Shown here: positions 6,372-64,000 of the stretch, piece by piece
Position numbering within the stretch: the stretch's first letter is position 1
Layout of the letters: every line of letters begins with the position of its first letter
Assembly: GCA_041690495.1 (NCBI GenBank)
Contig: JAWLHE010000007.1
Coordinates: 50,165-114,164, forward strand
Reading direction: 5' to 3'
Source of the DNA: Alphaproteobacteria bacterium
GTDB taxonomy: Bacteria; Pseudomonadota; Alphaproteobacteria; CACIAM-22H2
DNA: 64,000 nt
Notes under the pieces: model-generated
What the model was told of the DNA's origin: nothing
Databases searched by the model: none
Seen by the model: the letters and a program-made list of their open reading frames with translations, nothing else
Program-made: the position numbers and the translations under genes

Positions 6372-7232
6372 CTAGACCGGCGGAAGCGCGGCGACGGCCT
6401 CTTCGACTTCGTAGAATGTCGGCCGTACGTTCGAAAGGAGCGCCTTGCGCGCGAACTCGACCGCTACGGCCGGCGCATAGCCCTGCAGGTAAGCAAGCAG
6501 GCCCGCCTTGATGCAGAGAAGGTACTTGACCTCGGCATCGTAGCGCGCCTTGAGCGCGCTCGAGATCGGACCGACGAAGCCATAGGACAGGAAGACGCCG
6601 AGAAACGTGCCGACCAGCGCCGCGCCGATCAGCTTCCCGAGCACTTCGGGCGGCTCGCTGATGGCTCCCATGGTCTTGATGACGCCGAGCACCGCCGCGA
6701 CGATGCCGAGCGCGGGCATGCCATCGGCCATGGTCTGCAGCGCCGATGCGACCTGGCTCTTCTCGGAATGATGGGTTTCGATCTCCTCGTCGATCAGCGC
6801 TTCCATCTCGTGCGCATTGTCGGTGCCGAGCGTCAGCAGGCGGAGATAGTCGCAGAGAAACGTCATCGCATAATGGTCGGACGCGAATATCGGAAACTTT
6901 GGCCACAACGTGCTCTCGTCGGGCTTCTCGACATGCTGCTCGAGCGCCAGCATCCCCTTGGACTTGGCGAGCTTGAACACCGTGTAGAGAAGGGAGAGCA
7001 GTTCCAGATAAGCCTCTTTCGAATAGGGCGATCCCTTCAGCAACTGGCCCATCGCCCCGCCGACGCGCTTGATGACCGGCAACGGTGTGGCAATGATGAA
7101 TGCGCCGACCGCGGCGCCGCCGATAATCACAAGCTCGAACGGCTGCATCAGGACGGCGAGCTTGCCGCCCATCGCCATATAGCCGCCAATGACGCAGACG
7201 AACGTCGTCGCCGCACCGACCAGGAACAACAT
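6372..7232 (-). CDS. motA: Flagellar motor stator protein MotA
   Basis: Four-TM MotA/TolQ/ExbB-family protein immediately upstream of motB in the same orientation. Confidence 0.85.
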   Translation of the reverse strand: MLFLVGAATTFVCVIGGYMAMGGKLAVLMQPFELVIIGGAAVGAFIIATPLPVIKRVGGAMGQLLKGSPYSKEAYLELLSLLYTVFKLAKSKGMLALEQHVEKPDESTLWPKFPIFASDHYAMTFLCDYLRLLTLGTDNAHEMEALIDEEIETHHSEKSQVASALQTMADGMPALGIVAAVLGVIKTMGAISEPPEVLGKLIGAALVGTFLGVFLSYGFVGPISSALKARYDAEVKYLLCIKAGLLAYLQGYAPAVAVEFARKALLSNVRPTFYEVEEAVAALPPV

Positions 7233-16183: not shown

Positions 16184-16972
16184 ATGCTCTTCCCGTTTCG
16201 CGACAACAACCCGACGCGCATCACCCCGATCGTCACCATCGCGCTGATCGCCATGAACGCGTTGGTGTTCCTGTACCAGCTCACCCTGCCGGGCGGTGCT
16301 GGCGAGCGCTTTATCTACACTTTCGGCATGATCCCCGCCGTACTGTTCGGCCATGCCGCGCTGCCGCCCGGCCTTGCCGAAATCCCGTCCTGGGCCACCG
16401 TAGTCACATCGATGTTCCTGCATGGCGGGATCATGCACATCGCGGGAAACATGCTGTTCCTGTGGGTGTTCGGGAACAACGTGGAGGATGCGATGGGCCA
16501 TGCGCGGTTCGTCGTATTCTACCTGCTGTGCGGCGTGGCCGCGGCCCTTGCGCAGGGATTCAGCGATCCGTCGTCGCAGATTCCGATGGTGGGCGCCTCG
16601 GGCGCGATCTCGGGCGTTCTCGGCGCCTATCTGATCCTGCATCCGCGCGCCGAGGTCCATTCGCTCCTTTTCCTCGGCTTCTTCATTCGCGTGATCGAGC
16701 TTCCCGCCATGGTCGTGCTTGGCCTCTGGTTCGGCCTGCAGGTCCTCAACGCCATGGTGATGCCGAGCGAAGGGGGCGGTGTCGCATTTCTCGCCCATAT
16801 CGGCGGGTTCATCGCCGGCGCGGCCCTGATACCGCTGTTCCGGGACAAGCGCGCAGTCGAATGGCAGAAGCACGAGCGGCTCGAGCAGGGGCCTTGGCAA
16901 CCGGGGCCTTGGGGCCGGCGCGGGCCTTGGGGGCCGCGCGGTCCGGGCAATCGGCGCGGACCGTGGGGCTGA
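16184..16972 (+). CDS. Rhomboid family intramembrane serine protease with Gly/Pro/Trp-repeat C-terminal tail
   Basis: Rhomboid motifs HGGIMHIAGNM and GASGAISGVLGAY (catalytic Ser), plus AHIGGFIAG (catalytic His). C-terminus GPWQPGPWGRRGPWGPRGPGNRRGPWG. Confidence 0.8.
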   Translation: MLFPFRDNNPTRITPIVTIALIAMNALVFLYQLTLPGGAGERFIYTFGMIPAVLFGHAALPPGLAEIPSWATVVTSMFLHGGIMHIAGNMLFLWVFGNNVEDAMGHARFVVFYLLCGVAAALAQGFSDPSSQIPMVGASGAISGVLGAYLILHPRAEVHSLLFLGFFIRVIELPAMVVLGLWFGLQVLNAMVMPSEGGGVAFLAHIGGFIAGAALIPLFRDKRAVEWQKHERLEQGPWQPGPWGRRGPWGPRGPGNRRGPWG

Positions 16973-26370: not shown

Positions 26371-27288
26371 ATGGAGTATTTCGTACAACAGCTCATCAAC
26401 GGGCTGACTCTCGGCGCGATCTACGGCTTGATCGCCATCGGCTACACGATGGTCTACGGGATCATCGGCATGATCAATTTCGCCCACGGCGAGATCTACA
26501 TGATCGGCGCCTTCATCTCGGTGATCACGTTTACCTTGCTCGGGATGGGCGGCATCTCCTGGGCACCGCTTTCGATTCTGATCGTCCTCCTCGTTGCGAT
26601 GTTCTTCACCGCCGTTTATGGCTGGACGATCGAGCGTCTCGCATACCGGCCGCTGCGGGGTTCAATCCGGCTGGCGCCGCTGATCTCGGCGATCGGCATG
26701 TCGATTTTCCTGCAAAATTACGTACAGCTCACCCAGGGCGCCAAGATCAAGCCTCTGCAGCCCATCGTCCGCGGAAATTTTCCGCTGCTGGAATCCGCAT
26801 CGGGCTTCACGGTCGCGATCAGCTATCTGCAGATCATCATCATCCTGCTGACCATAGCGCTCATGGCGGGCTTTACTTACATGATCCAGAACACGGCGCT
26901 TGGGCGCGCACAGCGCGCCTGCGAGCAGGATCTCAAGATGGCCTCGCTGATCGGCGTCGATGTCGACCGTACGATTTCGTTCACATTCGTGATCGGCGCG
27001 GCGCTTGCCGCCGTCGCCGGCGTGATGGTGACGATGTATTACGGGGTGGTGGACTTCTACATCGGCTTCGTCGCCGGACTAAAGGCGTTCACCGCTGCAG
27101 TCCTTGGGGGTATCGGCTCGCTGCCGGGGGCGATGCTGGGCGGCATCCTCATCGGCCTGATCGAGGCGTTCTGGTCGGCCTACTTCACGATCGAGTACAA
27201 GGACGTCGCAACGTTCGCAATCCTCGTTATCGCGCTGATCTTCCGGCCGACCGGATTGCTGGGACGACCGGAAGTCGAGAAGGTTTGA
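26371..27288 (+). CDS. livH: Branched-chain amino acid ABC transporter permease LivH
   Basis: Typical LivH length, TM pattern and motifs (FAHGEIYMIGAF). Confidence 0.9.
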   Translation: MEYFVQQLINGLTLGAIYGLIAIGYTMVYGIIGMINFAHGEIYMIGAFISVITFTLLGMGGISWAPLSILIVLLVAMFFTAVYGWTIERLAYRPLRGSIRLAPLISAIGMSIFLQNYVQLTQGAKIKPLQPIVRGNFPLLESASGFTVAISYLQIIIILLTIALMAGFTYMIQNTALGRAQRACEQDLKMASLIGVDVDRTISFTFVIGAALAAVAGVMVTMYYGVVDFYIGFVAGLKAFTAAVLGGIGSLPGAMLGGILIGLIEAFWSAYFTIEYKDVATFAILVIALIFRPTGLLGRPEVEKV

Positions 27289-27297
27289 GGCACCGCC

Positions 27298-28598
<1,301 letters not shown>

Positions 28599-28602
<4 letters not shown>

Positions 28603-32793: not shown

Positions 32794-33228
32794 ATGCCTT
32801 CCGAAACGATTGCCATCGCCGCCGACCACGCCGGACTGGATTTGAAATCCGTCTTGTCGCAGGAATTGCGGCAGTCCGGATTCGAGGTGCTCGACCTCGG
32901 TACCGCTTCATCCGACAGTGTCGACTATCCGGATTTCGCTGACGCCCTTGCGGGCGCAATTACCCAGGGACGCGTCAGTCGCGGCGTGCTCGTGTGCGGC
33001 ACTGGCATTGGCATCTCGATTGCCGCAAACCGCCACAGGGGCGTGCGCGCGGCTCTATGCCGCGATTCCACCGACGCGCGGCTCGCACGCGAGCACAACG
33101 ATGCCAATGTGCTCGTGCTCGGCGGTCGTACGACCGGTGTGGAGACGGCCAGGGACTGCCTGAAGGCGTTCCTGACGACTCCGTTTGCAGGCGGGCGCCA
33201 CGCGCGTCGTGTCGCCAAGCTCGGATAA
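32794..33228 (+). CDS. rpiB: Ribose-5-phosphate isomerase B
   Basis: RpiB/LacAB family ([26 protein letters not shown]). 144 aa. Confidence 0.85.
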
Positions 33229-33257
33229 ACGAACCACCTGGCCCCATTTCTCTCACA

Positions 33258-34594
33258 TGATCAAGGCTTCCCCCTCCATGTCTGTTGCCAAGTCCGCTCA
33301 GGCGCCGTCCGGACCGAAAGCCGCCGACTTCTTCGGTGGTGCGCTTGCCGAAATCGACCCCGATCTGTATCGCGGCGTTCGCCTCGAGCTGAAGCGCCAG
33401 CAGGAGCAGATCGAGCTGATCGCCTCCGAGAACCTCGTCTCGCGCGCCGTGCTCGAAGCGCAAGGTTCAGTTCTGACCAACAAGTATGCGGAAGGCTATC
33501 CGGGCAGGCGCTACTACGGCGGATGCGAATACGTCGACATTGCCGAGGAACTGGCGATCGAGCGCGCCTGCAAGCTGTTCGACTGCGCCTTCGCAAACGT
33601 GCAGCCCCATTCGGGCGCGCAGGCGAACCAGGGCGTATTCATGGCTCTGCTGAAGCCCGGCGACACGATCCTGGGCATGTCGCTTGCTGCGGGCGGCCAT
33701 CTGACGCATGGCGCGCCGCCCAATCTCTCCGGCAAGTGGTTCAACGCCGTGCAGTACGGCGTACGCCGCGATGACGCGCTCATCGACTTCGACGAAGTCG
33801 AGCGCCTGGCGAAAGAGCACCGGCCGAAGCTGATCATTGCCGGCGGCTCGGCATATCCGCGAGTAATCGATTTCGCCCGGTTCCGCGCGATCGCCGACAG
33901 TGTCGGCGCCTATCTAATGGTCGACATGGCGCATTTCGCCGGCCTCGTCGCCGGCGGCGCGCATCCGAGCCCGTTGCCGCACGCCCATGTGGTAACGACG
34001 ACGACCCACAAGACGCTGCGCGGTCCGCGGGGCGGCCTGATCCTTTCCGCGGACGCCGAGCTCGGAAAGAAGATCAATTCGGCGGTATTCCCCGGCCTGC
34101 AGGGCGGGCCGCTGATGCATGTCATCGCTGCCAAGGCGGTCGCTTTCGGCGAAGCGCTGCGGCCGGAATTCAAGGCCTATGCGCGTGCGGTCGTGGAGAA
34201 TGCGCGGACCCTCGCGGCGAGCATGGCTGCCGGCGGGTTCGATATCGTCTCGGGCGGCACCGACACGCATCTGATGCTGGTGGACCTGCGACCGAAGAAG
34301 CTGACCGGTCGCGAGGCCGATCTCAGTCTCGATCGTGCCGGCATCACCTGCAACAAGAACGGCATTCCCTTCGATCCGGAGAAACCGACGGTCACTTCCG
34401 GGATCAGGCTCGGCACGCCGGCCGGCACCACGCGCGGCTTCGGCGTCAACGAGTTCCGGCAAATCGGTGCGTTGATCTGCGAAGTGCTCGAGGGACTGGC
34501 GGCGAACCGCGGGGACAACGAGAGCGCCGAGCGCGCGGTGCGTGCCAAGGTGCTGGACCTGTGCCGGCGCTTTCCGATCTACCGCGACCAATGA
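33258..34594 (+). CDS. glyA: Serine hydroxymethyltransferase
   Basis: SHMT motifs ([21 protein letters not shown] lysine context [14 protein letters not shown]). Start ambiguous between the ATG at 33258 and the ATG at 33279. Confidence 0.95.
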
Positions 34595-41864: not shown

Positions 41865-43946
41865 ATGACTGCTGCATATTGGATCGTGATCGCCTGCGGC
41901 GTGTTGGCGCTGATCTACGGCATATACGCCTATCGACAGGTAATGGCCGCCCCGGCGGGCAATCCACGCATGCAAGAAATTGCCGCCGCGATTCAGGAGG
42001 GGGCTCAGGCCTACCTCAATCGCCAGTACACAACCATCGCGATCGTCGGCGTGGTTGTCGCCGTCATCCTCCTTTACCTGGGCCTCCATGTCTCGATCGG
42101 CTTCCTGATCGGTGCCGTGCTGTCTGGCGCCGCTGGATATATCGGTATGAACGTCTCGGTGCGCGCCAATGTCCGTACGGCCGAAGCGGCACGAAGCGGC
42201 CTACAGCCCGCTCTCGACGTCGCCTTCCGCGCCGGCGCCATCACGGGGCTGCTCGTGGTCGGCCTTGGCCTGCTTGGCGTGGCCGTCTACTACGGCATTC
42301 TGCTGGGCTGGAAGGGCCCGGAGAACATGAACACGCTGATCCAGGCGCTCGTGGCGCTGTCGTTCGGCGCATCGCTGATTTCGATCTTCGCGCGCCTGGG
42401 CGGCGGCATCTTCACCAAGGGCGCCGACGTCGGCGCCGACCTCGTCGGCAAGATCGAGGCGGGCATCCCCGAGGACGATCCGCGCAACCCAGCCGTCATT
42501 GCCGACAACGTTGGCGACAACGTCGGCGACTGCGCCGGCATGGCCGCCGACCTGTTCGAAACCTACGCCGTGACCATCGTCGCGACCATGCTGCTCGCTG
42601 CGCTGTTCTTCACGGGCGAGACGCAGGCGACCATGATGCTCTACCCGCTGCTCGTCGGCGGCGTTTGCATCGCCACCTCGGTCGCCGGCACGTTCTTCGT
42701 CAAGCTCGGCCCCGACAATCACATCATGAAGGCCCTCTACAAGGGGCTCGCGGTTACCGGCTTCCTGTCGGCGGTGCTCATCTTCGTGGTCACGAATTGG
42801 TACCTCGGCGGCGAGACTTATACGATCGGTGCGCTCACCTTCACCTGGATGAACCTGTTCTGGTGCGCGATCACCGGCCTCGCCGTCACAGGCCTGCTGG
42901 TCTGGATCACCGAGTACTACACGGGCACGAATTACCGCCCGGTGCAGAGCATCGCCGAGGCCTCGATCACGGGGCACGCCACCAACATCATCAAGGGCCT
43001 TGCGGTTTCCATGGAGGCCACGGCACTGCCGGTGCTGGTGATCTCGGCGGGCATCATTGTTGCCTATCTCAACGCCGGCCTGTTCGGCATTTCGATCGCT
43101 GCGACGACGATGCTGGCGCTGGCGGGCATGGTCGTGGCGCTCGATGCCTACGGCCCGGTCACGGACAATGCCGGCGGCATTGCCGAGATGTCCGGCATGC
43201 CCAAGGACATCCGCAAGAACACCGATGCGCTCGACGCGGTCGGCAACACGACCAAGGCCGTTACCAAGGGCTATGCAATCGGCTCGGCCGGCCTCGCGGC
43301 CCTGGTCCTGTTCGCGGCCTATATCGAGGACCTGCGCCACTACTTCCCGGCCTACAAAGGCCTGACCTTCGACCTGCAGAACCCGTGGGTCGTGATTGGC
43401 CTGTTCATCGGCGGCATGCTCCCGTACCTGTTCGGCGCGATGGGCATGACCGCGGTCGGACGTGCCGCCGGCGCGGTGGTCATCGAGGTCCGCCGCCAGT
43501 TCAAGGAGATCAAGGGCATCATGGAGGGCACGGCCAAGCCGGATTACGGCCGGGCGGTCGACCTCCTGACGCGTGCGGCGATCAAGGAGATGATCGTGCC
43601 GTCGTTGCTGCCCGTGCTGGCGCCCGTGGTCCTCTATGTCGTCGTCCTCTTCATCGGCGGTCAGGCGGCGGCTTTCACGGCGTTGGGCGCCATGTTGCTT
43701 GGCACGATCGTCACCGGCCTGTTCGTCGCAATCTCGATGACGTCCGGCGGAGGCGCCTGGGACAATGCGAAGAAGTACATCGAGGACGGCCATCATGGCG
43801 GAAAGGGCTCGGAAGCCCACAAGGCGGCCGTCACCGGCGACACTGTCGGCGATCCCTACAAGGACACGGCCGGCCCGGCGGTGAATCCGATGATCAAGAT
43901 CATCAACATCGTCGCGATTCTGCTGCTGGCGATCCTCGCGCACTGA
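41865..43946 (+). CDS. hppA: Membrane-bound proton-translocating pyrophosphatase (H+-PPase)
   Basis: 693 aa, about 16 TM, with conserved V-PPase motifs ([40 protein letters not shown]). Confidence 0.95.
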
Positions 43947-49984: not shown

Positions 49985-51535
49985 GTGATCGAGTATCAGG
50001 CGCGGCGCACCATTCGGGATGGGGGGCCGCGAGTCGAAACCCTCCGGCACCCGGCGGCCGCTCTTGCCGTCGCGTTGCTGCTCAGCGCGGTCCCTGCGCT
50101 GGTGCGCGCCGTCTACTATCCCGACTATCCCGGCACGGACGACAGTTTCATCCATGCCGCGATTATCGGGAATCTCGCGGCAGGGTGGGGCTGGGGCATC
50201 AATCCGGGCGAGCCGGTCAACCTGTCGACAAGCCCGTTGTTCACGCTGATCATGCTCGCAGTATCGCGGGTCTGGCCGGACGTCGTCGCTGCCGGCTCCG
50301 CGATGTCGGTGGCGGCGGTGTCGCTCGGCGTCTTTGGAACCTTCGTCGTCGCCGGACGGATGACGAACAATGCCGCCGTCGGCCTGTGCGCCGCCGCCGT
50401 TGCCGCGACGAATGTTCACCTCTGGCGATGGGCAGGCACGTTCATCGAGGCGCCGCCCGCGTATGCCGGCGTCATTGCGGTTCTGGTCGCGTTCGACTCT
50501 CTCTATCGCGCGCCGCTGCGGAAACCGGAGCTCGCCCGGTTCGTCGCGCTCGGCTTCTCGATCGGGATTCTCGCGCTGCTGAGATTCGAGTGCGGACTGC
50601 TCGGACTGGCGTTCTTCGCGCATCATCTCGTCAATGACCGCCGCTATCTGATTTCGCGCTACGCAGCAGCGGCATTCGGCCTTGCCGTGCCGCTCGCGGC
50701 ATGGGCGATATTCGCCGGGGCGACCTTTGGCGCCGTGATTCCGACGACCTTCGGAGCAAAGACCTCGGCGGGGCTGATCGTCTTCAATCCGGCTCTGCTC
50801 GTGCAGTATGCCCGCGTCCTCGGGTCGGGGTTTCTCGCGGGAATCGTCCTGACAGCCGGCGCGGTCGCGTTGCTGATCGTCGAGGGCGCATCCGGGGCAC
50901 TGCTTGCCGCGATACGCCGATCCGCCCTGTTCGTGGCATTCGCCGCCGCCGTTCTGGCGTTCTACTATCTCAAGACGGAATCGCTACAAAGCCCTGCCAG
51001 GTACATGCTGCCGGCAATGGCCGTCCTGCCGCTCGCGGCGGCACCGTTCCTCGCCGCCGCGTGGAGCGCCGCGCGTGCCTGGCGGGTCGGAGCCGTCGCG
51101 ATCATCGCCGTGCAGCTCGTCGTGGCGGCGCTCACCAACCATCTGCGGGTCGCGCCTGTCCTGGCCCAGATGAACGATGGTTATGTCGCCGCCATGAGCG
51201 CGGTCGCCGAGCAACTCAACCGGCGTTGCAGCGTCGGCGACGTGGTGCTGGTCGAATTCGACATCGGCGTGGTCTCGTATCGTCACGATCATGGCTGCCG
51301 GATCGCGGACGGCGGCGCGCTCGCCTCGCCGGAGTTGCGCGGCCTGACCATCGCCGAGAAGGTCGCGGTGACGCACGCACGCTACGTTGTCGAGTCGCTG
51401 GGCGATCCGGATCGCAGCGCGCTCGACCGGGTACCGGCTGCGACGCTGCGCTGGAGCCGTGCCTTCGCTTCGCACAGCGTTGGGGCGCCCGATCGCACGT
51501 ATGTCGTTCGTCTCTTCGAGATCGTGCCACCGTGA
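49985..51535 (+). CDS. Polytopic membrane protein, putative GT-C-fold glycosyltransferase (PMT_2/ArnT-like) with C-terminal soluble domain
   Basis: About 11-12 TM helices. First extracytoplasmic loop has an acidic DD-S-F-I-H motif (YYPDYPGTDDSFIH) resembling the DE-x-HF motif of GT39/GT83 enzymes. About 120-aa non-membrane C-terminus. Assignment inferential. Confidence 0.4.
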   Translation: MIEYQARRTIRDGGPRVETLRHPAAALAVALLLSAVPALVRAVYYPDYPGTDDSFIHAAIIGNLAAGWGWGINPGEPVNLSTSPLFTLIMLAVSRVWPDVVAAGSAMSVAAVSLGVFGTFVVAGRMTNNAAVGLCAAAVAATNVHLWRWAGTFIEAPPAYAGVIAVLVAFDSLYRAPLRKPELARFVALGFSIGILALLRFECGLLGLAFFAHHLVNDRRYLISRYAAAAFGLAVPLAAWAIFAGATFGAVIPTTFGAKTSAGLIVFNPALLVQYARVLGSGFLAGIVLTAGAVALLIVEGASGALLAAIRRSALFVAFAAAVLAFYYLKTESLQSPARYMLPAMAVLPLAAAPFLAAAWSAARAWRVGAVAIIAVQLVVAALTNHLRVAPVLAQMNDGYVAAMSAVAEQLNRRCSVGDVVLVEFDIGVVSYRHDHGCRIADGGALASPELRGLTIAEKVAVTHARYVVESLGDPDRSALDRVPAATLRWSRAFASHSVGAPDRTYVVRLFEIVPP

Positions 51536-52165: not shown

Positions 52166-54169
52166 GTGAGCAGTCGTCTTTCGAAAGACCGGCTGGGCGT
52201 GCGTACGAGCGCGAAGAGCGCCGGCCGCTCGGCAGTGGTAGCTATGGAGGCGCACTGCAAGATGCTCGAGCGACAGCTCCGCGATATGGAGCAACGCTTC
52301 CAGGACCTGCTCGACGCATCTTCCGACTGGATCTGGGAGACGGACCACGAGTTGCGTTTCACCGGGTTTTCCGGCCGGCTCGCCGAAGTGAGCGGCGTCG
52401 ATCCCAAGGCGCTGATCGGCAAGAAGCGCAGCGATCTGATGGACCCATCGATTGCGGAGGATGTCCGACGCGCTCACCTCGACGATCTCGCGGCGCTGCG
52501 TCCGTTCCGCGATTTTACATACCGGACGGTCACCGCAATGGGAACCCGCTACTTCACCATCAGCGGCAAGCCCTGCTTCGATGCAGACGGACGGTTTACC
52601 GGCTATCGCGGCACCGGCCGCGACATCACGGCCGAAATGGAGGCGCGGCAGAGTGCGCAAATGATCCATGCGCGCTTCGTCGACGCGATCGAGAGCGTTC
52701 CCGCGAGCCTGATGCTGCATGATGCCGAAGACCGGCTCGTGATCTGCAACACGATCACCCGCACGTTCTTCCCGGGTCTCGACGACCTGCTCGTGCCCGG
52801 AACGAAGTTCGAGGATCTCGTCAAGGCGCAGGCCGCGCGAGGAACCCTGCCTTCCGCGGTCGGCCGGGTCGACGATTGGCTCGAAGAGCGGATGGACGCG
52901 CACCGCAACCCCAAAGGGGCCATCACGCGCAAGCATTCTGACGGCCGCTGGATCAGGATCATCGAGCGAAAGACCTCCGAAGGCGGCACGATCGGCATCC
53001 GCGTCGACGTCACCGAGCTCAAGAGCAAGGAGGAGCAGCTCGCACAGCAGACGGCGCTGCTCCAGGCAACCCTCGACAACATCAGCCAGGGCCTGAGCGT
53101 CTACGATGCCGATCTGAAGCTGGTCGCGTTCAACGCACGCTACATCGAGATGCTCGGCGTGCCGCCGGAATTCGGGCAGATCGGCCGGCCCTTCCAGGAC
53201 GTCGTGCGCTGGAACGCGGAGCACGGCGAATATGGACCGGGAACGCCGGACGAGCATATCGCCAGTCGCATAGCGCTGGTGACCAGGCCGGAGCCACATC
53301 ATCTCGAACGCCGGCGGCCCGACGGCACGCATATCGAGATTCAAGGACGCCCGATGCCGGGCGGAGGCTTCGTCACGACCTACACGGACGTGACCGAGCG
53401 CAAGCAGTTCCAGGAGACGCTCGAGGCCAATGCGGCGCGGCTCGAGGAGTACGCGCAGGAGCTCAAGAAATCGAACACCGAGCTCGAGCAGTTCGCCTAT
53501 GTCGCATCGCATGACTTGCAAGAGCCGCTGCGGATGGTGGGCAGCTACTGCCAACTCCTGCAGCGGCGGTACAAGGGCAAGCTCGACAAGGACGCGGACG
53601 AGTTCATCGGCTTCGCCGTCGAAGGCGCCACGCGCATGCAGCGGATGATCAACGATCTGCTCACATATTCGCGCGTCGGCCGCACAGGAAAGGGGATGAC
53701 GGATGTCGCGATCGAGGAGATCGCCAGGACTGCGGTCGCGAACCTCCAGGCCGCGATCGCGGAAAGCGGGGCAACGGTGACATGGGCGGCGCTGCCATCG
53801 GTCATGGGAGAGAAGGTGCAGCTCCTGCAGCTCTTCCAGAACCTCATCGGCAACGCGATCAAGTTCCGCGCCGAGGGCCGCAGCGTCGAGGTCCGGATCG
53901 ATGCCCGGCAGGAGGGCGACGCCTGGCACTTCACCGTTTGCGACAATGGCATCGGCATCGAGCCGCAATATGCCGAGCGCATCTTCCTGATCTTTCAGCG
54001 CCTGCACGACCGCTCGAAATACCAGGGCACGGGCATCGGCCTGGCGGTGTGCAAGAAGGTCGTCGAGCATCATGGCGGCCGCATCTGGATCGAATCAGAG
54101 CCCGGCAAGGGAACCACGTTCCATTTCACATTGAGCCGCGATCCCCTGGCTCGAAAGGAGTCCGCATGA
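52166..54169 (+). CDS. Multi-PAS sensor histidine kinase
   Basis: No TM segments. About 3 PAS/PAC repeats ([34 protein letters not shown]), a HisKA H-box [12 protein letters not shown], and N/G1/F/G2 boxes of HATPase_c ([22 protein letters not shown]). GTG start with RBS aggggaa. Confidence 0.85.
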
Positions 54170-54624
54170 CCGCGCGCATGACCAATCGCCCGATCGAGAT
54201 TCTCCTGGTCGAGGACAATCTCGGCGACGCGCGTCTGACACAGGAAGCCCTGAAAGAGGGCAAGGTGCGCAACAACCTCCACCATGCCCGCGACGGCGTC
54301 GAGGCGATGGCGTTCCTGCGCCGCGACGGGGCGAACGCCGACGCCCCGAGGCCGGATCTGGTGCTGCTGGACCTCAACCTGCCGCGCAAGGACGGTCGCG
54401 AGGTGCTGGGCGAGATGAAGGAGGATCCCGATCTCCGGCTGATCCCCGTGGTCGTGCTGACGACCTCGGAAGCCGAGCAGGACGTGCTTCGGACATACGA
54501 GCTCCGCGCGAACTGCTACATCACCAAGCCCGTGGACCTGGAGAAGTTCATCACGATCGTCCGCAGCATCGAGGATTTCTGGCTGACGATTGTCCGCCTG
54601 CCGTCGTTCGACGCGCACGTCTGA
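54166..54624 (+). CDS. Single-domain response regulator (CheY-like receiver)
   Basis: REC domain with the acidic pocket (LLVEDNLGD), a phospho-Asp context ([12 protein letters not shown]) and the conserved Lys region (YITKP). ATGA overlap with the kinase stop. Confidence 0.85.
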
Positions 54625-54649
54625 CCCGGGCAGGAAGGCGTCAGCGCGC

Positions 54650-55804
54650 ATGCTCGTCGGCACGAAAATCTCGGTTCTCCTCGTCGAGGACAACCCCGGC
54701 GATGCGCGGCTGACACGCGAGATGCTGGGCGAGGTGGAATCGTTCGAGTTCGACCTCGAACATGTCGAGCGCCTCGCCGATGCGATTGCCGCACTTGCGC
54801 GCGCCAGGTTCGACGTCATTCTTCTCGATCTCTCGCTCCCCGACTCGCAAGGCCTCGACGGCATCGCGCAGCTGCAGAAATCCGCGCCGACTGTTCCGGT
54901 CGTGGTGCTGACCGGCCGCAGCGACGACGCGGTGGCGATCGAAGTAGTCAAGGCCGGCGCCGACGACTACCTGATCAAGGGGCAGAGCGATGGACAGTTG
55001 ATGGTGCGGGCCATCCGCTATTCGGTCGAGCGCGCGCGCGGCCGGCTGCTGCTGGTCGACGCCAAGGCGAAAGCCGAGATCGCCAACCGCGTCAAGACCG
55101 AGTTCCTCGCCAACATGAGCCATGAGCTGCGCACGCCGCTCAATGCCATCATGGGATTCTCGGAACTGCTCAAGGCGGAGATGCTGGGCCCGCTGGGCCA
55201 CCCCTCCTACGCCGAGTACGCGAAGGATATCTACCAGAGCGCGGCGCATCTGCTGCAGATCATCAACGACATCCTCGATCTCTCGAAGGTCGAGGCCGGC
55301 AAGATCGAGCTCGACGAGCGGCCCATCGATCTCAATACGCTGGTAACGGCGTCGCTGCGCCTGATCACCGAGCGCGCGAGCGAGGCCGGCGTCGAGATCG
55401 TCAATGAGCTGCCGGCCGACCTGCCGCGACTCTATGCCGACGAGCGGCTGCTCAAGCAGATCCTGATCAACCTGCTGTCGAACGCCGTCAAGTTCACCAA
55501 GAGCGGCGGCTCGGTGAAGGTCCAGGCCTGGCGTGAGCCGACGGGTGTTCTGGCGCTCGCTGTCGCGGATACCGGCATCGGCATCTCCGAGGAGAACCTG
55601 CCGCGCGTGATGGAGCCGTTCCGCCAGGCCGACGCGACGCTGAGCCGCAAATACGAGGGCACCGGGCTCGGTCTGCCGCTGGTGAAATCCTTCGTCGAGC
55701 TGCATCGCGGCGTTTTCGAGCTCAAGAGCCAGGTGAATGCCGGGACGACGGCGCTGGCGCGATTCCCGCGCGACCGGGTGATGGAGAGCGCCGCCGCCGG
55801 CTGA
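54650..55804 (+). CDS. Hybrid response-regulator/histidine kinase (REC-HisKA-HATPase)
   Basis: N-terminal REC (VLLVEDNPGD, ILLDLSLPD, YLIKG), then an H-box SHELRTPLNAI and an HATPase_c (NLLSNAVKFT, DTGIGIS, GTGLGLPL). Confidence 0.85.
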   Translation: MLVGTKISVLLVEDNPGDARLTREMLGEVESFEFDLEHVERLADAIAALARARFDVILLDLSLPDSQGLDGIAQLQKSAPTVPVVVLTGRSDDAVAIEVVKAGADDYLIKGQSDGQLMVRAIRYSVERARGRLLLVDAKAKAEIANRVKTEFLANMSHELRTPLNAIMGFSELLKAEMLGPLGHPSYAEYAKDIYQSAAHLLQIINDILDLSKVEAGKIELDERPIDLNTLVTASLRLITERASEAGVEIVNELPADLPRLYADERLLKQILINLLSNAVKFTKSGGSVKVQAWREPTGVLALAVADTGIGISEENLPRVMEPFRQADATLSRKYEGTGLGLPLVKSFVELHRGVFELKSQVNAGTTALARFPRDRVMESAAAG

Positions 55805-60887: not shown

Positions 60888-60997
60888 TCTCCGGGCAAGA
60901 GTTCAGCACGATGCCGGCCGGGACGGAATGGGCTTTCTTGACTCAGGATCGGTTTCCGTCCCCAAAAGGACTCGCGAGGAGACAGGCAAGAGGCGCC

Positions 60998-61504
60998 ATG
61001 ACCGGCGACACCGTGCATCCCGTGCTGGCGGAGGCCGCCGACAGGTTGGCGGTCGAGCGGTTGCTGCAGGTCCATCTGCGCGAGCTCTCGGGCTATCGCA
61101 CCGCTCCGGCAACCGACGTTCATGCCTACCCGTATCTCGATCGGTACTGGACCGAGCCGGACCGGCGGGCCTTCCTGATCAGGCCGGGCGATCAGGTTGC
61201 GGGCTTCGCCCTCGTCAATGCCTGGGCGCCATCGGGGCTGCCGGTGGAGCGCGCCATGGCCGAGTTCTTTATCGTCCCGGGCCAACGGCGGTCAGGAATC
61301 GGCACCCGCGCGGCCGTGGAGATCATCGCGGGCCTGCCGGGCGTCTGGGAGATCGGCATGCTGGCCGCGCACGGCGCAGCGCAGGCCTTCTGGACCCATG
61401 TGCTAAGGCAGATGCCCGGCACCGTGCCGAGATGGATCGAGGGCGACGGACGGCGCTGGTCAGGCCGGATCCTCAGATTCCAGAGCACGGGGCGATGCAG
61501 GTGA
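60998..61504 (+). CDS. GNAT family N-acetyltransferase
   Basis: Acetyl-CoA-binding motif A-like QRRSGIGTRAAVE, with GNAT beta-strand context FALVNAW. Start chosen at MTGDTVHP. Confidence 0.65.
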   Translation: MTGDTVHPVLAEAADRLAVERLLQVHLRELSGYRTAPATDVHAYPYLDRYWTEPDRRAFLIRPGDQVAGFALVNAWAPSGLPVERAMAEFFIVPGQRRSGIGTRAAVEIIAGLPGVWEIGMLAAHGAAQAFWTHVLRQMPGTVPRWIEGDGRRWSGRILRFQSTGRCR

Positions 61505-62332
61505 CGCATGCCCCGGCGCGCCGGCGCGCCGCCCGGACCGGAACGGGTGCAGCAGCATCGACGAGACGGTCAGGCAGCTCTGCTCGCGGTGCTCCTCCAG
61601 GCCGATCTGCATGCGCTCGTGGCCAAGGGCAGGGGCGGCGCAGTACGTCGCGAACAGGCGGTCCCAGAACGGGAAGATGGTTCCGAAATTCGAGTCGGTT
61701 TCCGTGCGCTGCGCGGAGTGATGGATGCGGTGCATATCGGGCGTGATCACCACCCGCCGCAAGGAGCGGTCGAGCGCAGCAGGCAGAGTCGCATTGGCGT
61801 GCTGTGCGATCGACACGGCCACGGAGAGCGTCTCGAAGGCGATCACGGCCTCGACAGGCGGCCCGAGCACCGCGATGAGCGCGAATGCCCACGCGATGGC
61901 GACCATCACCTCGAAGGGATGGAAGCGCAGCGCGGTCGTGAAATCATAGTCGAGGTCGGTGTGATGTACCGCGTGGATGCGCCACAGGAGCGGCACGCCA
62001 TGGAGCACGCGGTGAAAGGCATAGCGCCCGAGATCAAGTGCCAGGATCGAGAAAGCAAGGGCCGGCCAGAAGGGCAGCCCGACGGCGTTGAGCAGACCCC
62101 AGCCGCGCTCGCCCAGCGCAACCGACAACGCAATGGCGGAAAGCGGAACCAGGCCGCGCACGACGATCGTATCGATCACCGTCAGCGTGAAATTGCCGAT
62201 CCAGCGCAGCCGCAACGGCGCCGCATTCGCGCGCCGCGGCACTGCTGCTTCCCAGATCGCGGCGACCGTGATGGCGCCCAGATACGCGCCGGCGTAATAG
62301 ACCGCCGCGGTTCCGGAGGGCTCCGCTTCCAT
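61460..62332 (-). CDS. Fatty acid hydroxylase / sterol desaturase superfamily membrane protein
   Basis: Histidine boxes HRVLH, HAVHH and HRIHH in a 4-TM protein. The 3' end overlaps the convergent GNAT gene by 45 nt. Confidence 0.75.
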   Translation of the reverse strand: MEAEPSGTAAVYYAGAYLGAITVAAIWEAAVPRRANAAPLRLRWIGNFTLTVIDTIVVRGLVPLSAIALSVALGERGWGLLNAVGLPFWPALAFSILALDLGRYAFHRVLHGVPLLWRIHAVHHTDLDYDFTTALRFHPFEVMVAIAWAFALIAVLGPPVEAVIAFETLSVAVSIAQHANATLPAALDRSLRRVVITPDMHRIHHSAQRTETDSNFGTIFPFWDRLFATYCAAPALGHERMQIGLEEHREQSCLTVSSMLLHPFRSGRRAGAPGHASPASPRALESEDPA

Positions 62333-62383
62333 CCCGGGGAGAGATCCGCCTGGCGGCGCTGGCCGCCGGGCGGATATGCGTTG

Positions 62384-62560
62384 CTACTTGCGGCGGATGA
62401 AACGATAGGCCACGGCCGCTCCCGCTGCCGCGCTGGCGATCAGGCCCATCGATGACGGCTCCGGGATCGGGACGGTTGTGTTGCCGGCGAACGCGGGGGC
62501 AGCGGCGCTGACGATGCCGGCGACCAGGGCGAGCGTGCCGGCCGAGAAAAATTGACGCAT
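62384..62560 (-). CDS. PEP-CTERM sorting-domain micro-protein (58 aa)
   Basis: Signal peptide MRQFFSAGTLALVAGIVSAAAPAFA, then GNTTVPI, then a canonical PEP-CTERM: PEP, a 17-residue hydrophobic span, RFIRRK. RBS GGAGG 6 nt upstream of the ATG at 62560. Confidence 0.55.
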   Translation of the reverse strand: MRQFFSAGTLALVAGIVSAAAPAFAGNTTVPIPEPSSMGLIASAAAGAAVAYRFIRRK

Positions 62561-62935
62561 GTCCGATTCCTCCAATTGTGCCGACGCACCCGGCTGGCGC
62601 ATCGGCCCTGCCGGAGGGAGACGCAAACACCATGCCATGGAGGGTTAATGTCGCCCTTACAATGACTTGGCGGTGTTTCAAAGCCGGCGACGCGCCAGCA
62701 TTTGTAAGATCCGCCGACACCCGCTGGGCACCGCACCAATTCCGTTGCGTCGCCCGGCCATGCATAATCGGGCCAAGAAGAAATTCGGGAGGAACGCCCT
62801 TGCCATACTTCAGGCTCTCCGCGCGCCGCCCGGCCCACGCCGAGTACGCCGCCGGTCACACGCACGCGCGCTTCGACTGCCGGCCTTCGGCCCGCCGGCG
62901 CGGGCCTGCCGCCACGCGCGCCCCGGAGGTCCCGC

Positions 62936-63433
62936 ATGCAGCTCTCTGACCGCATCACCGGCCTGACGCTGATCGGGGTCGGCGCATTGGCGGCCTACGG
63001 CGCTTCGCGCCTGCCACCGATGCCGGGACAGGATATCGGGCCGAGCGTCTTTCCGGCGGTGATCGGCTTCGGGCTGGCGTTGTGCGGCGCGCTGATCGCG
63101 TTCGGCGTCGGCCGGAGCTTCGAGGAGCAGGCCGAAGCCGATTTTTCAGCGCATCAGGAACCGCAGGAGCGGAGCTCGGACGTACGCTCGCGCTTCCATG
63201 GCCTGCGAGCGCTCGTACCGGTGGCGCTGCTGCTGTTCTACGTCGCTGCTGCGGAAACCGTCGGCTTCGTCCCGGTCGCGGCGATCATCGTCTTTACCAT
63301 CGCGTTCGCACTGGGCGCCGACTGGAGGCACGGGCTGGCCCTAGCGCTGCTGGCGCCGCCGGCCATCCACCTCCTGTTCTCGAAGCTGCTGCGCGTGCCG
63401 CTGCCGGCTGGTCTGCTGCCGATGCCCTGGTAG
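62936..63433 (+). CDS. tctB: Tripartite tricarboxylate transporter TctB family small permease
   Basis: About 165 aa, 4 TM, located immediately upstream of tctA. Confidence 0.7.
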   Translation: MQLSDRITGLTLIGVGALAAYGASRLPPMPGQDIGPSVFPAVIGFGLALCGALIAFGVGRSFEEQAEADFSAHQEPQERSSDVRSRFHGLRALVPVALLLFYVAAAETVGFVPVAAIIVFTIAFALGADWRHGLALALLAPPAIHLLFSKLLRVPLPAGLLPMPW

Positions 63434-63439
63434 ATCCGG

Positions 63440-64000
63440 ATGAGCACGTTCCTCGATGCGCTGTCGCTCGTCGCCCAGCCGGACGTTCTGCTCGCGATAG
63501 TTCTAGCGTCGATCTATGGCCTGGTCGTCGGCGCGCTGCCCGGACTCACGGCGACGATGGCCACCGCCCTGCTGGTGCCGGTGACTTTCTACCTGTCGCC
63601 GATAGCCGCCATCGCGACCATCATCGCCACGTCAGCCATGGCGATCTTCGCCGGCGACATTCCCGGCGCGCTGCTTCGCATCCCCGGCACCCCCGCTTCG
63701 GCCGCCTATACCAACGAAGCCTACGCGATGACGCGCAAGGGCCAGCCCGAACTGGCGCTTGGCATCGGCCTGTGGTTCAGCGCGATCGGCGGCATTGCCG
63801 GGACGCTGTCGCTGATCCTGCTTGCGCCGACGCTTGCCGAGATGGCGCTCAACTTCTCCACCTTCGAGTATTTCTGGCTGGCGCTGCTCGGCCTGATGTG
63901 CGCGACGCTGGTGGCGCGCTCGTCGCCGGTCAAGGCGATCGCCAGTATGCTGGTCGGGCTGCTGTTCTCGTGTATAGGCATGGAGAATCCCTCGGGTGTG
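63440..64000 (+). CDS. tctA: Tripartite tricarboxylate transporter TctA family large permease, 3' end truncated by window edge
   Basis: N-terminal TctA pattern (GALPGLTATMATALLVPVTFYL, GTPASAAYT). The frame runs open to base 64000. Confidence 0.8.
   Translation, partial: MSTFLDALSLVAQPDVLLAIVLASIYGLVVGALPGLTATMATALLVPVTFYLSPIAAIATIIATSAMAIFAGDIPGALLRIPGTPASAAYTNEAYAMTRKGQPELALGIGLWFSAIGGIAGTLSLILLAPTLAEMALNFSTFEYFWLALLGLMCATLVARSSPVKAIASMLVGLLFSCIGMENPSGV

Follow-up and report, generated by a model that had tools for sequence, protein, structure and literature searches.

The 64-kb window examined here (the whole stretch of DNA that was analysed, 64,000 nt of contig JAWLHE010000007.1) carries on its minus strand an open reading frame (ORF) that runs from 62560 to 62384, stop codon included, and encodes the 58-residue protein MRQFFSAGTLALVAGIVSAAAPAFAGNTTVPIPEPSSMGLIASAAAGAAVAYRFIRRK. 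The protein consists of a signal peptide, a seven-residue linker and a PEP-CTERM sorting signal, and its gene, called the mini gene below, is followed after a gap of 51 nt by a gene for a membrane protein of the fatty acid hydroxylase superfamily. As set out in the following, we cautiously favour the view that the mini gene is expressed, that its product is a PEP-CTERM precursor kept deliberately minimal, and that the gene leads a conserved operon of two, the other being that of this membrane di-iron hydroxylase. The mini gene and its parts are the following:

62384..62560, minus strand: minimal PEP-CTERM precursor gene, as judged from its sequence, PF07589, TIGR02595, the ratio of non-synonymous to synonymous substitution (dN/dS), the G+C content of third codon positions (GC3) and the family alignment
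62569..62573, minus strand: Shine-Dalgarno sequence GGAGG, 8 nt before the ATG, of which GGAG is kept in the related loci L001 and L088
62560-62486, minus strand: signal peptide, residues 1-25, ending in AFA/G
62485-62465, minus strand: linker GNTTVPI, 7 residues
62464-62456, minus strand: PEP motif
62455-62405, minus strand: transmembrane stretch of 17 hydrophobic residues
62404-62387, minus strand: basic tail RFIRRK
62386-62384, minus strand: stop codon

Translation of 62560->62384 bore out the layout that a sequence-only reading of the stretch had proposed (AFA/GN, GNTTVPI, PEP, 17 hydrophobic residues, RFIRRK), and the GGAGG ribosome-binding site named there was found at 62573->62569, 8 nt from the ATG. 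The signal peptide starts with MR-, continues with a hydrophobic core and ends at AFA/G, the cleavage site having been assigned by eye and from the family alignment. The tripartite C-terminal signal is complete, with PEP followed by the hydrophobic helix, the basic cluster and the stop. When compared with domain models, the 58-aa protein scored 24.6 bits with PF07589 (gathering threshold 20.7) and 18.2 bits with TIGR02595 (cutoff 16), thus passing the PEP-CTERM model by which the same reading had proposed to check it. Its exact sequence is a called protein in an NCBI record. A six-frame regular-expression scan of the 64-kb window found no other PEP-CTERM-like ORF. A longer reading of 84 aa from an ATG at 62638 was rejected: this start lies upstream of the predicted sigma-54 promoter described below, the 84-aa protein is absent from the protein collection, and its extra region is not kept as protein in relatives.

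A word-index homology search with the 58-aa protein returned a single homologue, P0002 (57 aa, 67% identity), which is encoded on three metagenome contigs (L001-3) in the gene order divergent tctB, small gene, fatty acid hydroxylase and convergent acetyltransferase-like gene. The third relative, L088, has a hydroxylase that is 61% identical, a 57-aa gene with the mini layout and the same tctB-mini-hydroxylase order. By Nei-Gojobori counting against L001, whose syntenic homologue is 67% identical, the mini gene of the window had a dN/dS of 0.27 and a GC3 of 0.83, and the hydroxylase gene had values of 0.26 and 0.82, respectively. The linker together with PEP was the most constrained segment of the mini gene (proportion of non-synonymous differences, pN, 0.05; of synonymous differences, pS, 0.64). 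These values show that the mini ORF codes for protein and is subject to purifying selection.

When 1.84 billion representative proteins were searched exhaustively with a profile, 67 matched at E <= 1e-3. Sixty of these were at most 102 aa long, and 55 were 40-74 aa long and aligned end to end; about 60 representative clusters share the mini architecture at 40-100 aa, the retrieved family being skewed by the profile towards members with PEP. Across 52 aligned minis, only P-E-P and the Ala at -1 of the signal-peptidase site never varied, the Ala at -3 hardly varied, and the linker measured 4-11 residues. Scanning metagenomes with the mini alignment gave no confirmed relative, and a rescan with the hydroxylase gained only L088. 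Tandem mini PEP-CTERM genes in two or three copies were present in L035 (141-612), L065 (9341-9956), L084 (5350-5738) and L086 (124-476). The tandem arrays ahead of the hydroxylase resemble the precursor-gene arrays of peptide-modification clusters.

These data bear on the idea that the ORF is what is left of the gene for a larger PEP-CTERM protein after 5' truncation, as a remnant or pseudogene, or else arose by chance in GC-rich DNA. Its very small size and the lone hit of the word-index search would fit such an origin; against it, the ORF possesses its own signal peptide, Shine-Dalgarno sequence and promoter, its dN/dS is 0.27 and its GC3 0.83, its homologues are all 50-70 aa long and align end to end, no longer, N-terminally extended version was found at orthologous loci, and the longer midcut relatives described below are extended at the C-terminus, not at the N-terminus. 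Because of the purifying selection, the end-to-end family and the lack of a longer version at orthologous loci, we rejected both the remnant and the random-ORF readings, which we consider extremely improbable. The sequence-only reading had offered two choices, a remnant or else a minimal exosortase substrate or decoy. The dN/dS, the 57-aa syntenic homologues, the roughly 60 clusters and the promoter with its PrsR box and sigma-54 element contradict the remnant and fit the minimal substrate. Both outcomes that would have spoken against the gene, an ORF unconserved in close relatives and a truncated pseudogene, are not what was found: P0002, L088 and the clusters document conservation, and no longer intact gene occurs at the orthologous loci.

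The upstream region contains two further elements:

62703..62719, minus strand: motif 1, TGTCGGCGGATCTTACA, 17 nt, predicted binding site for the enhancer-binding protein PrsR, lying 65 nt ahead of the sigma-54 element
62622..62637, minus strand: sigma-54-type -24/-12 promoter, TGGCATGGTGTTTGCG, 62 nt upstream of the ATG, in the position of motif 2 of Haft 2006

Proteobacterial PEP-CTERM genes have been reported to be preceded by a 17-nt motif 1 that ends in TTTACA and is a predicted PrsR site, with 62.8 +/- 10.6 nt between motif 1 and the sigma-54 -24/-12 element and then 71 +/- 38 nt to the start (Haft 2006, PMC1569441). The window shares this arrangement, in which a large upstream non-coding region holds motif 1 (here TGTCGG-N5-CTTACA) and, about 63 nt further on, a sigma-54 element that is some 70 nt away from the start, just as the protein shares with the substrates of the PEP-CTERM/exosortase system (EpsH, XrtA) and its PrsK/PrsR/PrsT sigma-54 regulon (PMC1569441) the order of signal peptide, PEP, helix and basic cluster and passes the corresponding models. 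The difference is that ordinary PEP-CTERM proteins have a cargo domain and are mostly encoded in single-gene operons, while the window mini has a 'cargo' of 7 residues and is followed by the hydroxylase gene. In the window, motif 1 matches exactly once, against 0.09 matches expected with one mismatch allowed, and the sigma-54 pattern twice, against 0.29 expected. The exact pattern TGTCGG-N5-YTTACA occurred eight times at six independent loci (2.69 Mb, both strands), every time upstream of a mini PEP-CTERM ORF. With one mismatch allowed, the bipartite site was present at 11 independent loci (the window, L001-3, L088, L084, L085, L005, L007, L009, L041, L051 and L065). The sigma-54 element is conserved in L001-3 and L088, and equivalent sites exist in L005, L007, L009, L041, L051, L065, L084 and L085. 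In a three-way alignment with L001 and L088, motif 1, the sigma-54 element and the Shine-Dalgarno sequence stand out as conserved islands in diverged DNA.

This arrangement suggests that the mini and hydroxylase genes are under PrsR/sigma-54 control, and we regard it as very probable that the mini ORF is a real, regulated PEP-CTERM gene. The phylogenetic profile of the DNA site matched that of PrsK/R/T and was confined to EpsH-positive Proteobacteria (Haft 2006, PMC1569441). Given this profile, we infer indirectly from the presence of the bipartite box that the source genome probably has the PrsK/R/T regulators and an exosortase.

Two observations were made alongside. A block of about 32 nt at 62735-62766 (minus strand GATTATGCATGGCCGGGCGACGCAACGGAATTG), situated between the PrsR box and the divergent tctB, is near-invariant among the window, L001 and L088, with diverging flanks. 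The block differs from both motif 1 and the sigma-54 element, has no Rfam match, and could be a second enhancer, an IHF-type site or a regulatory site for tctBA; an Rfam search of 62200-63000 as a whole gave nothing meaningful. The only other match to TGGCAY-N5-TTGC in the window, at 33009-33023 on the plus strand, is followed after about 175 nt by ORF 33185-34594, the one ahead of an NrdR-like gene, and is not accompanied by motif 1; it may be due to chance or be a separate sigma-54 promoter.

Downstream of the mini gene, the following features were recognized:

61460..62332, minus strand: integral-membrane protein of the fatty acid hydroxylase superfamily, 290 aa, with three His boxes, assigned by PF04116 (104 bits) and synteny
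62345..62374, minus strand: GC-rich hairpin with a 12-bp stem and no T-run; a 9-bp stem lies at the same place in L001

The His boxes of the hydroxylase (HxxxH, HxxHH, HxxHH) and its membrane fold family are shared with OlsE and other bacterial PF04116 members. Its assignment as an OlsE orthologue was rejected, as it lies far under the OlsE cutoff (74.2 bits versus 475 for NF052566), and the protein is placed in the superfamily PF04116 only. To our knowledge, no characterised PF04116 member is paired with a sorting-signal peptide. A search of 61300-63000 for intrinsic terminators and sigma-70 promoters found none, and the mini and hydroxylase genes are apparently co-transcribed. The intercistronic hairpin is not significant when compared with GC-rich shuffles (z -1.3 for the window and -1.0 for L001) and may, on this weak indication, be an attenuator or stabiliser. 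At its 3' end, the hydroxylase gene overlaps a convergent 197-aa ORF (60911-61504) by 45 nt (61460-61504). This ORF has no family match, its L001 counterpart has a weak match to an acetyltransferase family (PF00583), and the convergent pair is conserved in close relatives only.

Scanning one genome per species with the hydroxylase yielded 80 loci at 30-49% identity. A directly upstream, same-strand partner with a signal peptide, a short linker, a hydrophobic helix and a basic tail was present at 42 of 81 informative loci; small ORFs were found by regular expressions and manual reading, and the partner counts are approximate. The frequency of partners drops with distance from the window hydroxylase, from 32 of the 49 closer relatives to one of the 13 most distant. 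Loci with partner and hydroxylase belong to Alpha-, Beta- and Gammaproteobacteria and to Acidobacteria, and the linkers have 4-25 residues. The partners were of the following kinds:

Mini, PEP-CTERM: window, L001, L005, L007, L009, L022, L035 (two copies), L041, L051, L053, L059, L065 (three copies), L077, L084 and L085
Mini, IPTL-CTERM: L024 (TIGR04174, 27.4 bits)
Mini, 'VPVDSP': L011, L014 and L020
Mini, no recognised motif: L004, L006, L015, L063 and L067
Midcut-by-XrtH partner: 18 loci

The link also held when minis were taken as the starting point. P0003 led to two minis followed by a fatty acid hydroxylase gene (L084), P0004 to one mini followed by a fatty acid hydroxylase gene (L085), and P0046 to two tandem minis, after which the contig ends. 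In an all-against-all clustering of neighbouring ORFs, the midcut protein, exosortase H and its associated protein were the only recurrent neighbours. The genes tested beside PEP-type modules, mostly one just upstream, were unrelated housekeeping genes (hisS, ispH, purU), indicating that the PEP-type unit is a free-standing two-gene module. We conclude that the mini and the hydroxylase quite likely form a functional unit. The sequence-only reading had placed the ORF between a fatty acid hydroxylase and the tctBA genes; this position is correct, but the hydroxylase is a conserved partner (42 of 81 loci) and not a mere neighbour.

Several observations concern the variety of these modules. The VPVDSP minis (L011 2330-2521, L014 9758-9937 and L020 9747-9938) have a common signal, H-A-x-x-x-V-S-V-P-V-D-S-P-[WF]-A-L-G, which scored 19.3 bits with the IPTL-CTERM model, just under the cutoff of 20.5, and may be an uncurated flavour of sorting signal. 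Two modules with different signals were found in single assemblies, PEP plus VPVDSP in L005/L020 (metagenome-assembled genome JADKDK01) and KEP-type plus midcut in L004/L019 (JBJKSP01), and a mini with an IPTL signal and a midcut gene occur on one contig in L024/L049 (CAWAJO010000003.1). Such dual modules with different signal flavours fit a match to different sortases. A Sphingomonadales subgroup of the hydroxylase (L028, L030, L031, L034, L040, L042, L043 and L046) has no sorting-signal partner and has conserved neighbours of its own, so that coupling to mini or midcut genes does not extend to the whole hydroxylase subfamily.

The midcut-by-XrtH partners connect the mini gene to a curated exosortase cassette. 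In L010 (Candidatus Nitrotoga), a midcut-by-XrtH gene (NF033207, 99.6 bits) is followed by the hydroxylase homologue, exosortase H (TIGR04177, 191 bits) and the XrtH-associated membrane protein (NF041730, 193 bits). The XrtH cassette is also present in L012, L016, L017, L021 and L025 and in part in L071 and L044, the latter with only an exosortase H homologue, upstream of the partner-hydroxylase pair. In total, exosortase H adjoins the pair at eight loci, some of them in Betaproteobacteria. The midcut, exosortase H and NF041730 cassette is known from NCBIfam curation only, and a literature search on XrtH and midcut found no paper.

The midcut proteins begin with a signal peptide ending in A-x-A/G, followed by a linker of 14-25 residues and IPTLS with helix and basic loop. 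Next comes another hydrophobic segment, which ends in an A-x-A-like site, and last a domain of about 80 aa that is rich in S/T/N and contains two Cys. Proteins with this layout are encoded at L010 9485-9994, L016 2484-3017, L013, L019, L032, L036, L045 and L058. Both they and the window mini have a signal peptide with A-x-A/G, a short Pro/Val/Thr-rich linker, an exosortase-type signal and a basic tail. In both, a homologous fatty acid hydroxylase gene (30-42% identity) lies directly downstream, a feature that was observed and is not a curated criterion. In contrast, the signal is of the IPTL type in midcut proteins and PEP-CTERM in the window mini, midcut proteins have the second hydrophobic segment and the Cys-containing domain of about 80 aa whereas the window protein ends 6 residues past its helix, and exosortase H and the associated protein are adjacent to midcut genes but absent beside the window mini. 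Against NF033207, the window mini scored 15.1 bits, far under the cutoff of 45, over model positions 11-62, the N-terminal third. Judging by their layout, midcut genes appear to have arisen when a mini precursor was fused to another exported protein. As midcut proteins look like the mini module plus a second exported domain, the mini would be the conserved core and the midcut extension an add-on.

With the partners in view, the main rival explanation can be weighed, namely that the mini serves the hydroxylase as a small subunit or regulator that spans the membrane once. In this case its C-terminal helix would bind the enzyme within the membrane once the signal peptide is gone, the protein would stay uncut by any exosortase, and its PEP-like motif would be only a helix-capping or topology feature. 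The tight, conserved adjacency of the two genes would agree with this, as would a possible excess of the small gene product (strong Shine-Dalgarno sequence versus a weak one, and the intercistronic hairpin). Several partners (L006, L015, L063 and L004) have the same layout with no recognised sorting motif, and PEP-type modules lack an adjacent exosortase among the flanking genes tested. However, PEP is invariant in the 52 aligned minis, a set partly selected by a PEP-containing profile, and in the hydroxylase-anchored, motif-blind set a curated exosortase-type signal of the PEP-CTERM, IPTL-CTERM or midcut kind occurs in about 34 of the 42 partners, with three further partners carrying the weakly IPTL-like VPVDSP signal. 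Moreover, exosortase H is adjacent at eight loci, and the gene uses a regulatory box that is otherwise specific to PEP-CTERM genes. We therefore judge an uncut subunit or regulator to be unlikely.

A further possibility is that the mini acts as a cargo-less decoy, primer or competitive regulator of the exosortase, or as an acceptor cap, and that the hydroxylase is functionally unrelated. The near absence of cargo, the co-regulation by the PrsR box as for ordinary PEP-CTERM genes and the tandem copies in L035, L065, L084 and L086 would be in line with such a role, but it leaves unexplained both the reciprocal, phylogenetically broad linkage to one hydroxylase subfamily and the position of the hydroxylase between target and exosortase H, and we hold it to be very unlikely.

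Cleavage of the precursor calls for an exosortase, and the window was searched for one. A phmmer search with exosortase H against all window ORFs gave no match, no homologue of the XrtH-associated protein was found among the window ORFs, and Pfam/NCBIfam scans of about 25 window ORFs revealed no exosortase; these scans covered most polytopic membrane ORFs, with the MotA-like 6372-7232, LivH/M-like 26371-28602, pyrophosphatase 41865-43946 and TctA 63440-64000 regions lying outside their coverage. The earlier statement that no exosortase gene is present in the window thus holds for the ORFs scanned. Sensor-kinase genes at 52166-55804 were rejected as PrsK/PrsR, their best models being NahK- and TorS-like kinases. 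A 516-aa ORF at 49985-51535 (plus strand) was likewise rejected as an exosortase, having no exosortase or other significant Pfam/NCBIfam match (best E 0.013). It has about nine predicted transmembrane segments, a coding-like GC3 and a YPGTDDSF motif in its first loop that is reminiscent of GT-C-type glycosyltransferases. Elsewhere in the window, at 16184-16972 (plus strand), a gene for a rhomboid-family intramembrane protease was noted (PF01694, 122 bits). The window looks alphaproteobacterial by its DNA: when 24 kb of it were compared with plasmids by megablast, the only matches, at about 75%, were to housekeeping genes of members of this class (Shinella, Sinorhizobium and Methylobacterium). 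We consider it reasonably likely that an exosortase is present in the source genome and cleaves the mini protein.

Under the view that the mini is a minimal precursor, the protein would be exported by Sec and cleaved after AFA, and its C-terminal helix would then hold it in the inner membrane so that PEP lies at the periplasmic face. There, an exosortase whose gene is located elsewhere in the genome would cut at PEP and release a peptide of about 9-10 residues, GNTTVPIPE/P, which would be transferred to an acceptor. The hydroxylase, in turn, would make or modify a membrane lipid that serves as the acceptor or as part of the product. By the positive-inside rule, the His boxes of the hydroxylase are predicted to face the cytoplasm, which would make direct hydroxylation of the exported linker unlikely. 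A precedent for the coupling of a sortase-family system to membrane-lipid enzymes is archaeosortase A (ArtA), whose lipid anchoring of substrates requires PssA and PssD, and pssA/pssD are syntenic with artA in Methanosarcina (PMC7157517). The ArtA system differs in that it involves a phosphatidylserine synthase and decarboxylase and large targets, whereas the window enzyme is a di-iron hydroxylase, and the analogy is functional only. On account of the cytoplasmic His boxes and this precedent, a lipid-acceptor role is the one that we tentatively favour for the hydroxylase, at low confidence.

Several points weigh against the proposed pathway. Among the window ORFs tested, none was an exosortase, PrsK/R/T or rpoN gene, and no exosortase was identified near PEP-type loci among the flanking genes tested, mostly one just upstream. 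About half of the hydroxylase homologues are without such a partner, and those partners that have no recognisable sorting motif fit a generic small membrane partner equally well. The peptide that would be released is very short and variable across the family. A PDB sequence search with the hydroxylase gave no match and so no indication of its substrate, and the chemistry of exosortases is itself not biochemically established (Haft 2023 preprint).

As far as earlier knowledge is concerned, the PEP-CTERM domain, the regulatory box and the XrtH cassette are already known, the last from database curation only. Literature searches found no paper on a pairing of PEP-CTERM with a sterol desaturase or fatty acid hydroxylase. 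The sequence-only reading had called minimal exosortase substrates an essentially undescribed class. This stands in so far as no paper was found on either the minis or midcut; it needs correction in that midcut-by-XrtH (NF033207), which has the same N-terminal layout and precedes the same hydroxylase, has been curated. As far as can be told, three things are new: the widespread family of cargo-less PEP-CTERM precursors, the reciprocal link of these precursors to one hydroxylase subfamily, and the construction of curated midcut targets on the same mini module.

Many environmental, floc- and biofilm-forming bacteria have exosortases, whose attachment partner and transpeptidase activity are still unsettled. 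The module described here is a compact genetic handle on these questions, with a substrate reduced to its recognition signal, whose gene is linked to that of a lipid-type hydroxylase and, among relatives, also to that of a dedicated exosortase. A product so small should suit mass spectrometry far better than a large glycosylated PEP-CTERM protein. At its widest, and as a speculation that we rate as improbable, the combination of minimal sorting-signal peptides (PEP-CTERM, IPTL-CTERM and related) with this hydroxylase subfamily would represent a widespread undescribed exosortase-dependent pathway, in which a cargo of about 10 residues is joined to a hydroxylated membrane lipid or in which cleavage controls lipid production. 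If this were true, the outcome would be a sortase-made lipopeptide or envelope modification that is switched on with the biofilm/floc regulon, and the pathway would point to the long-sought acceptor chemistry of exosortases.

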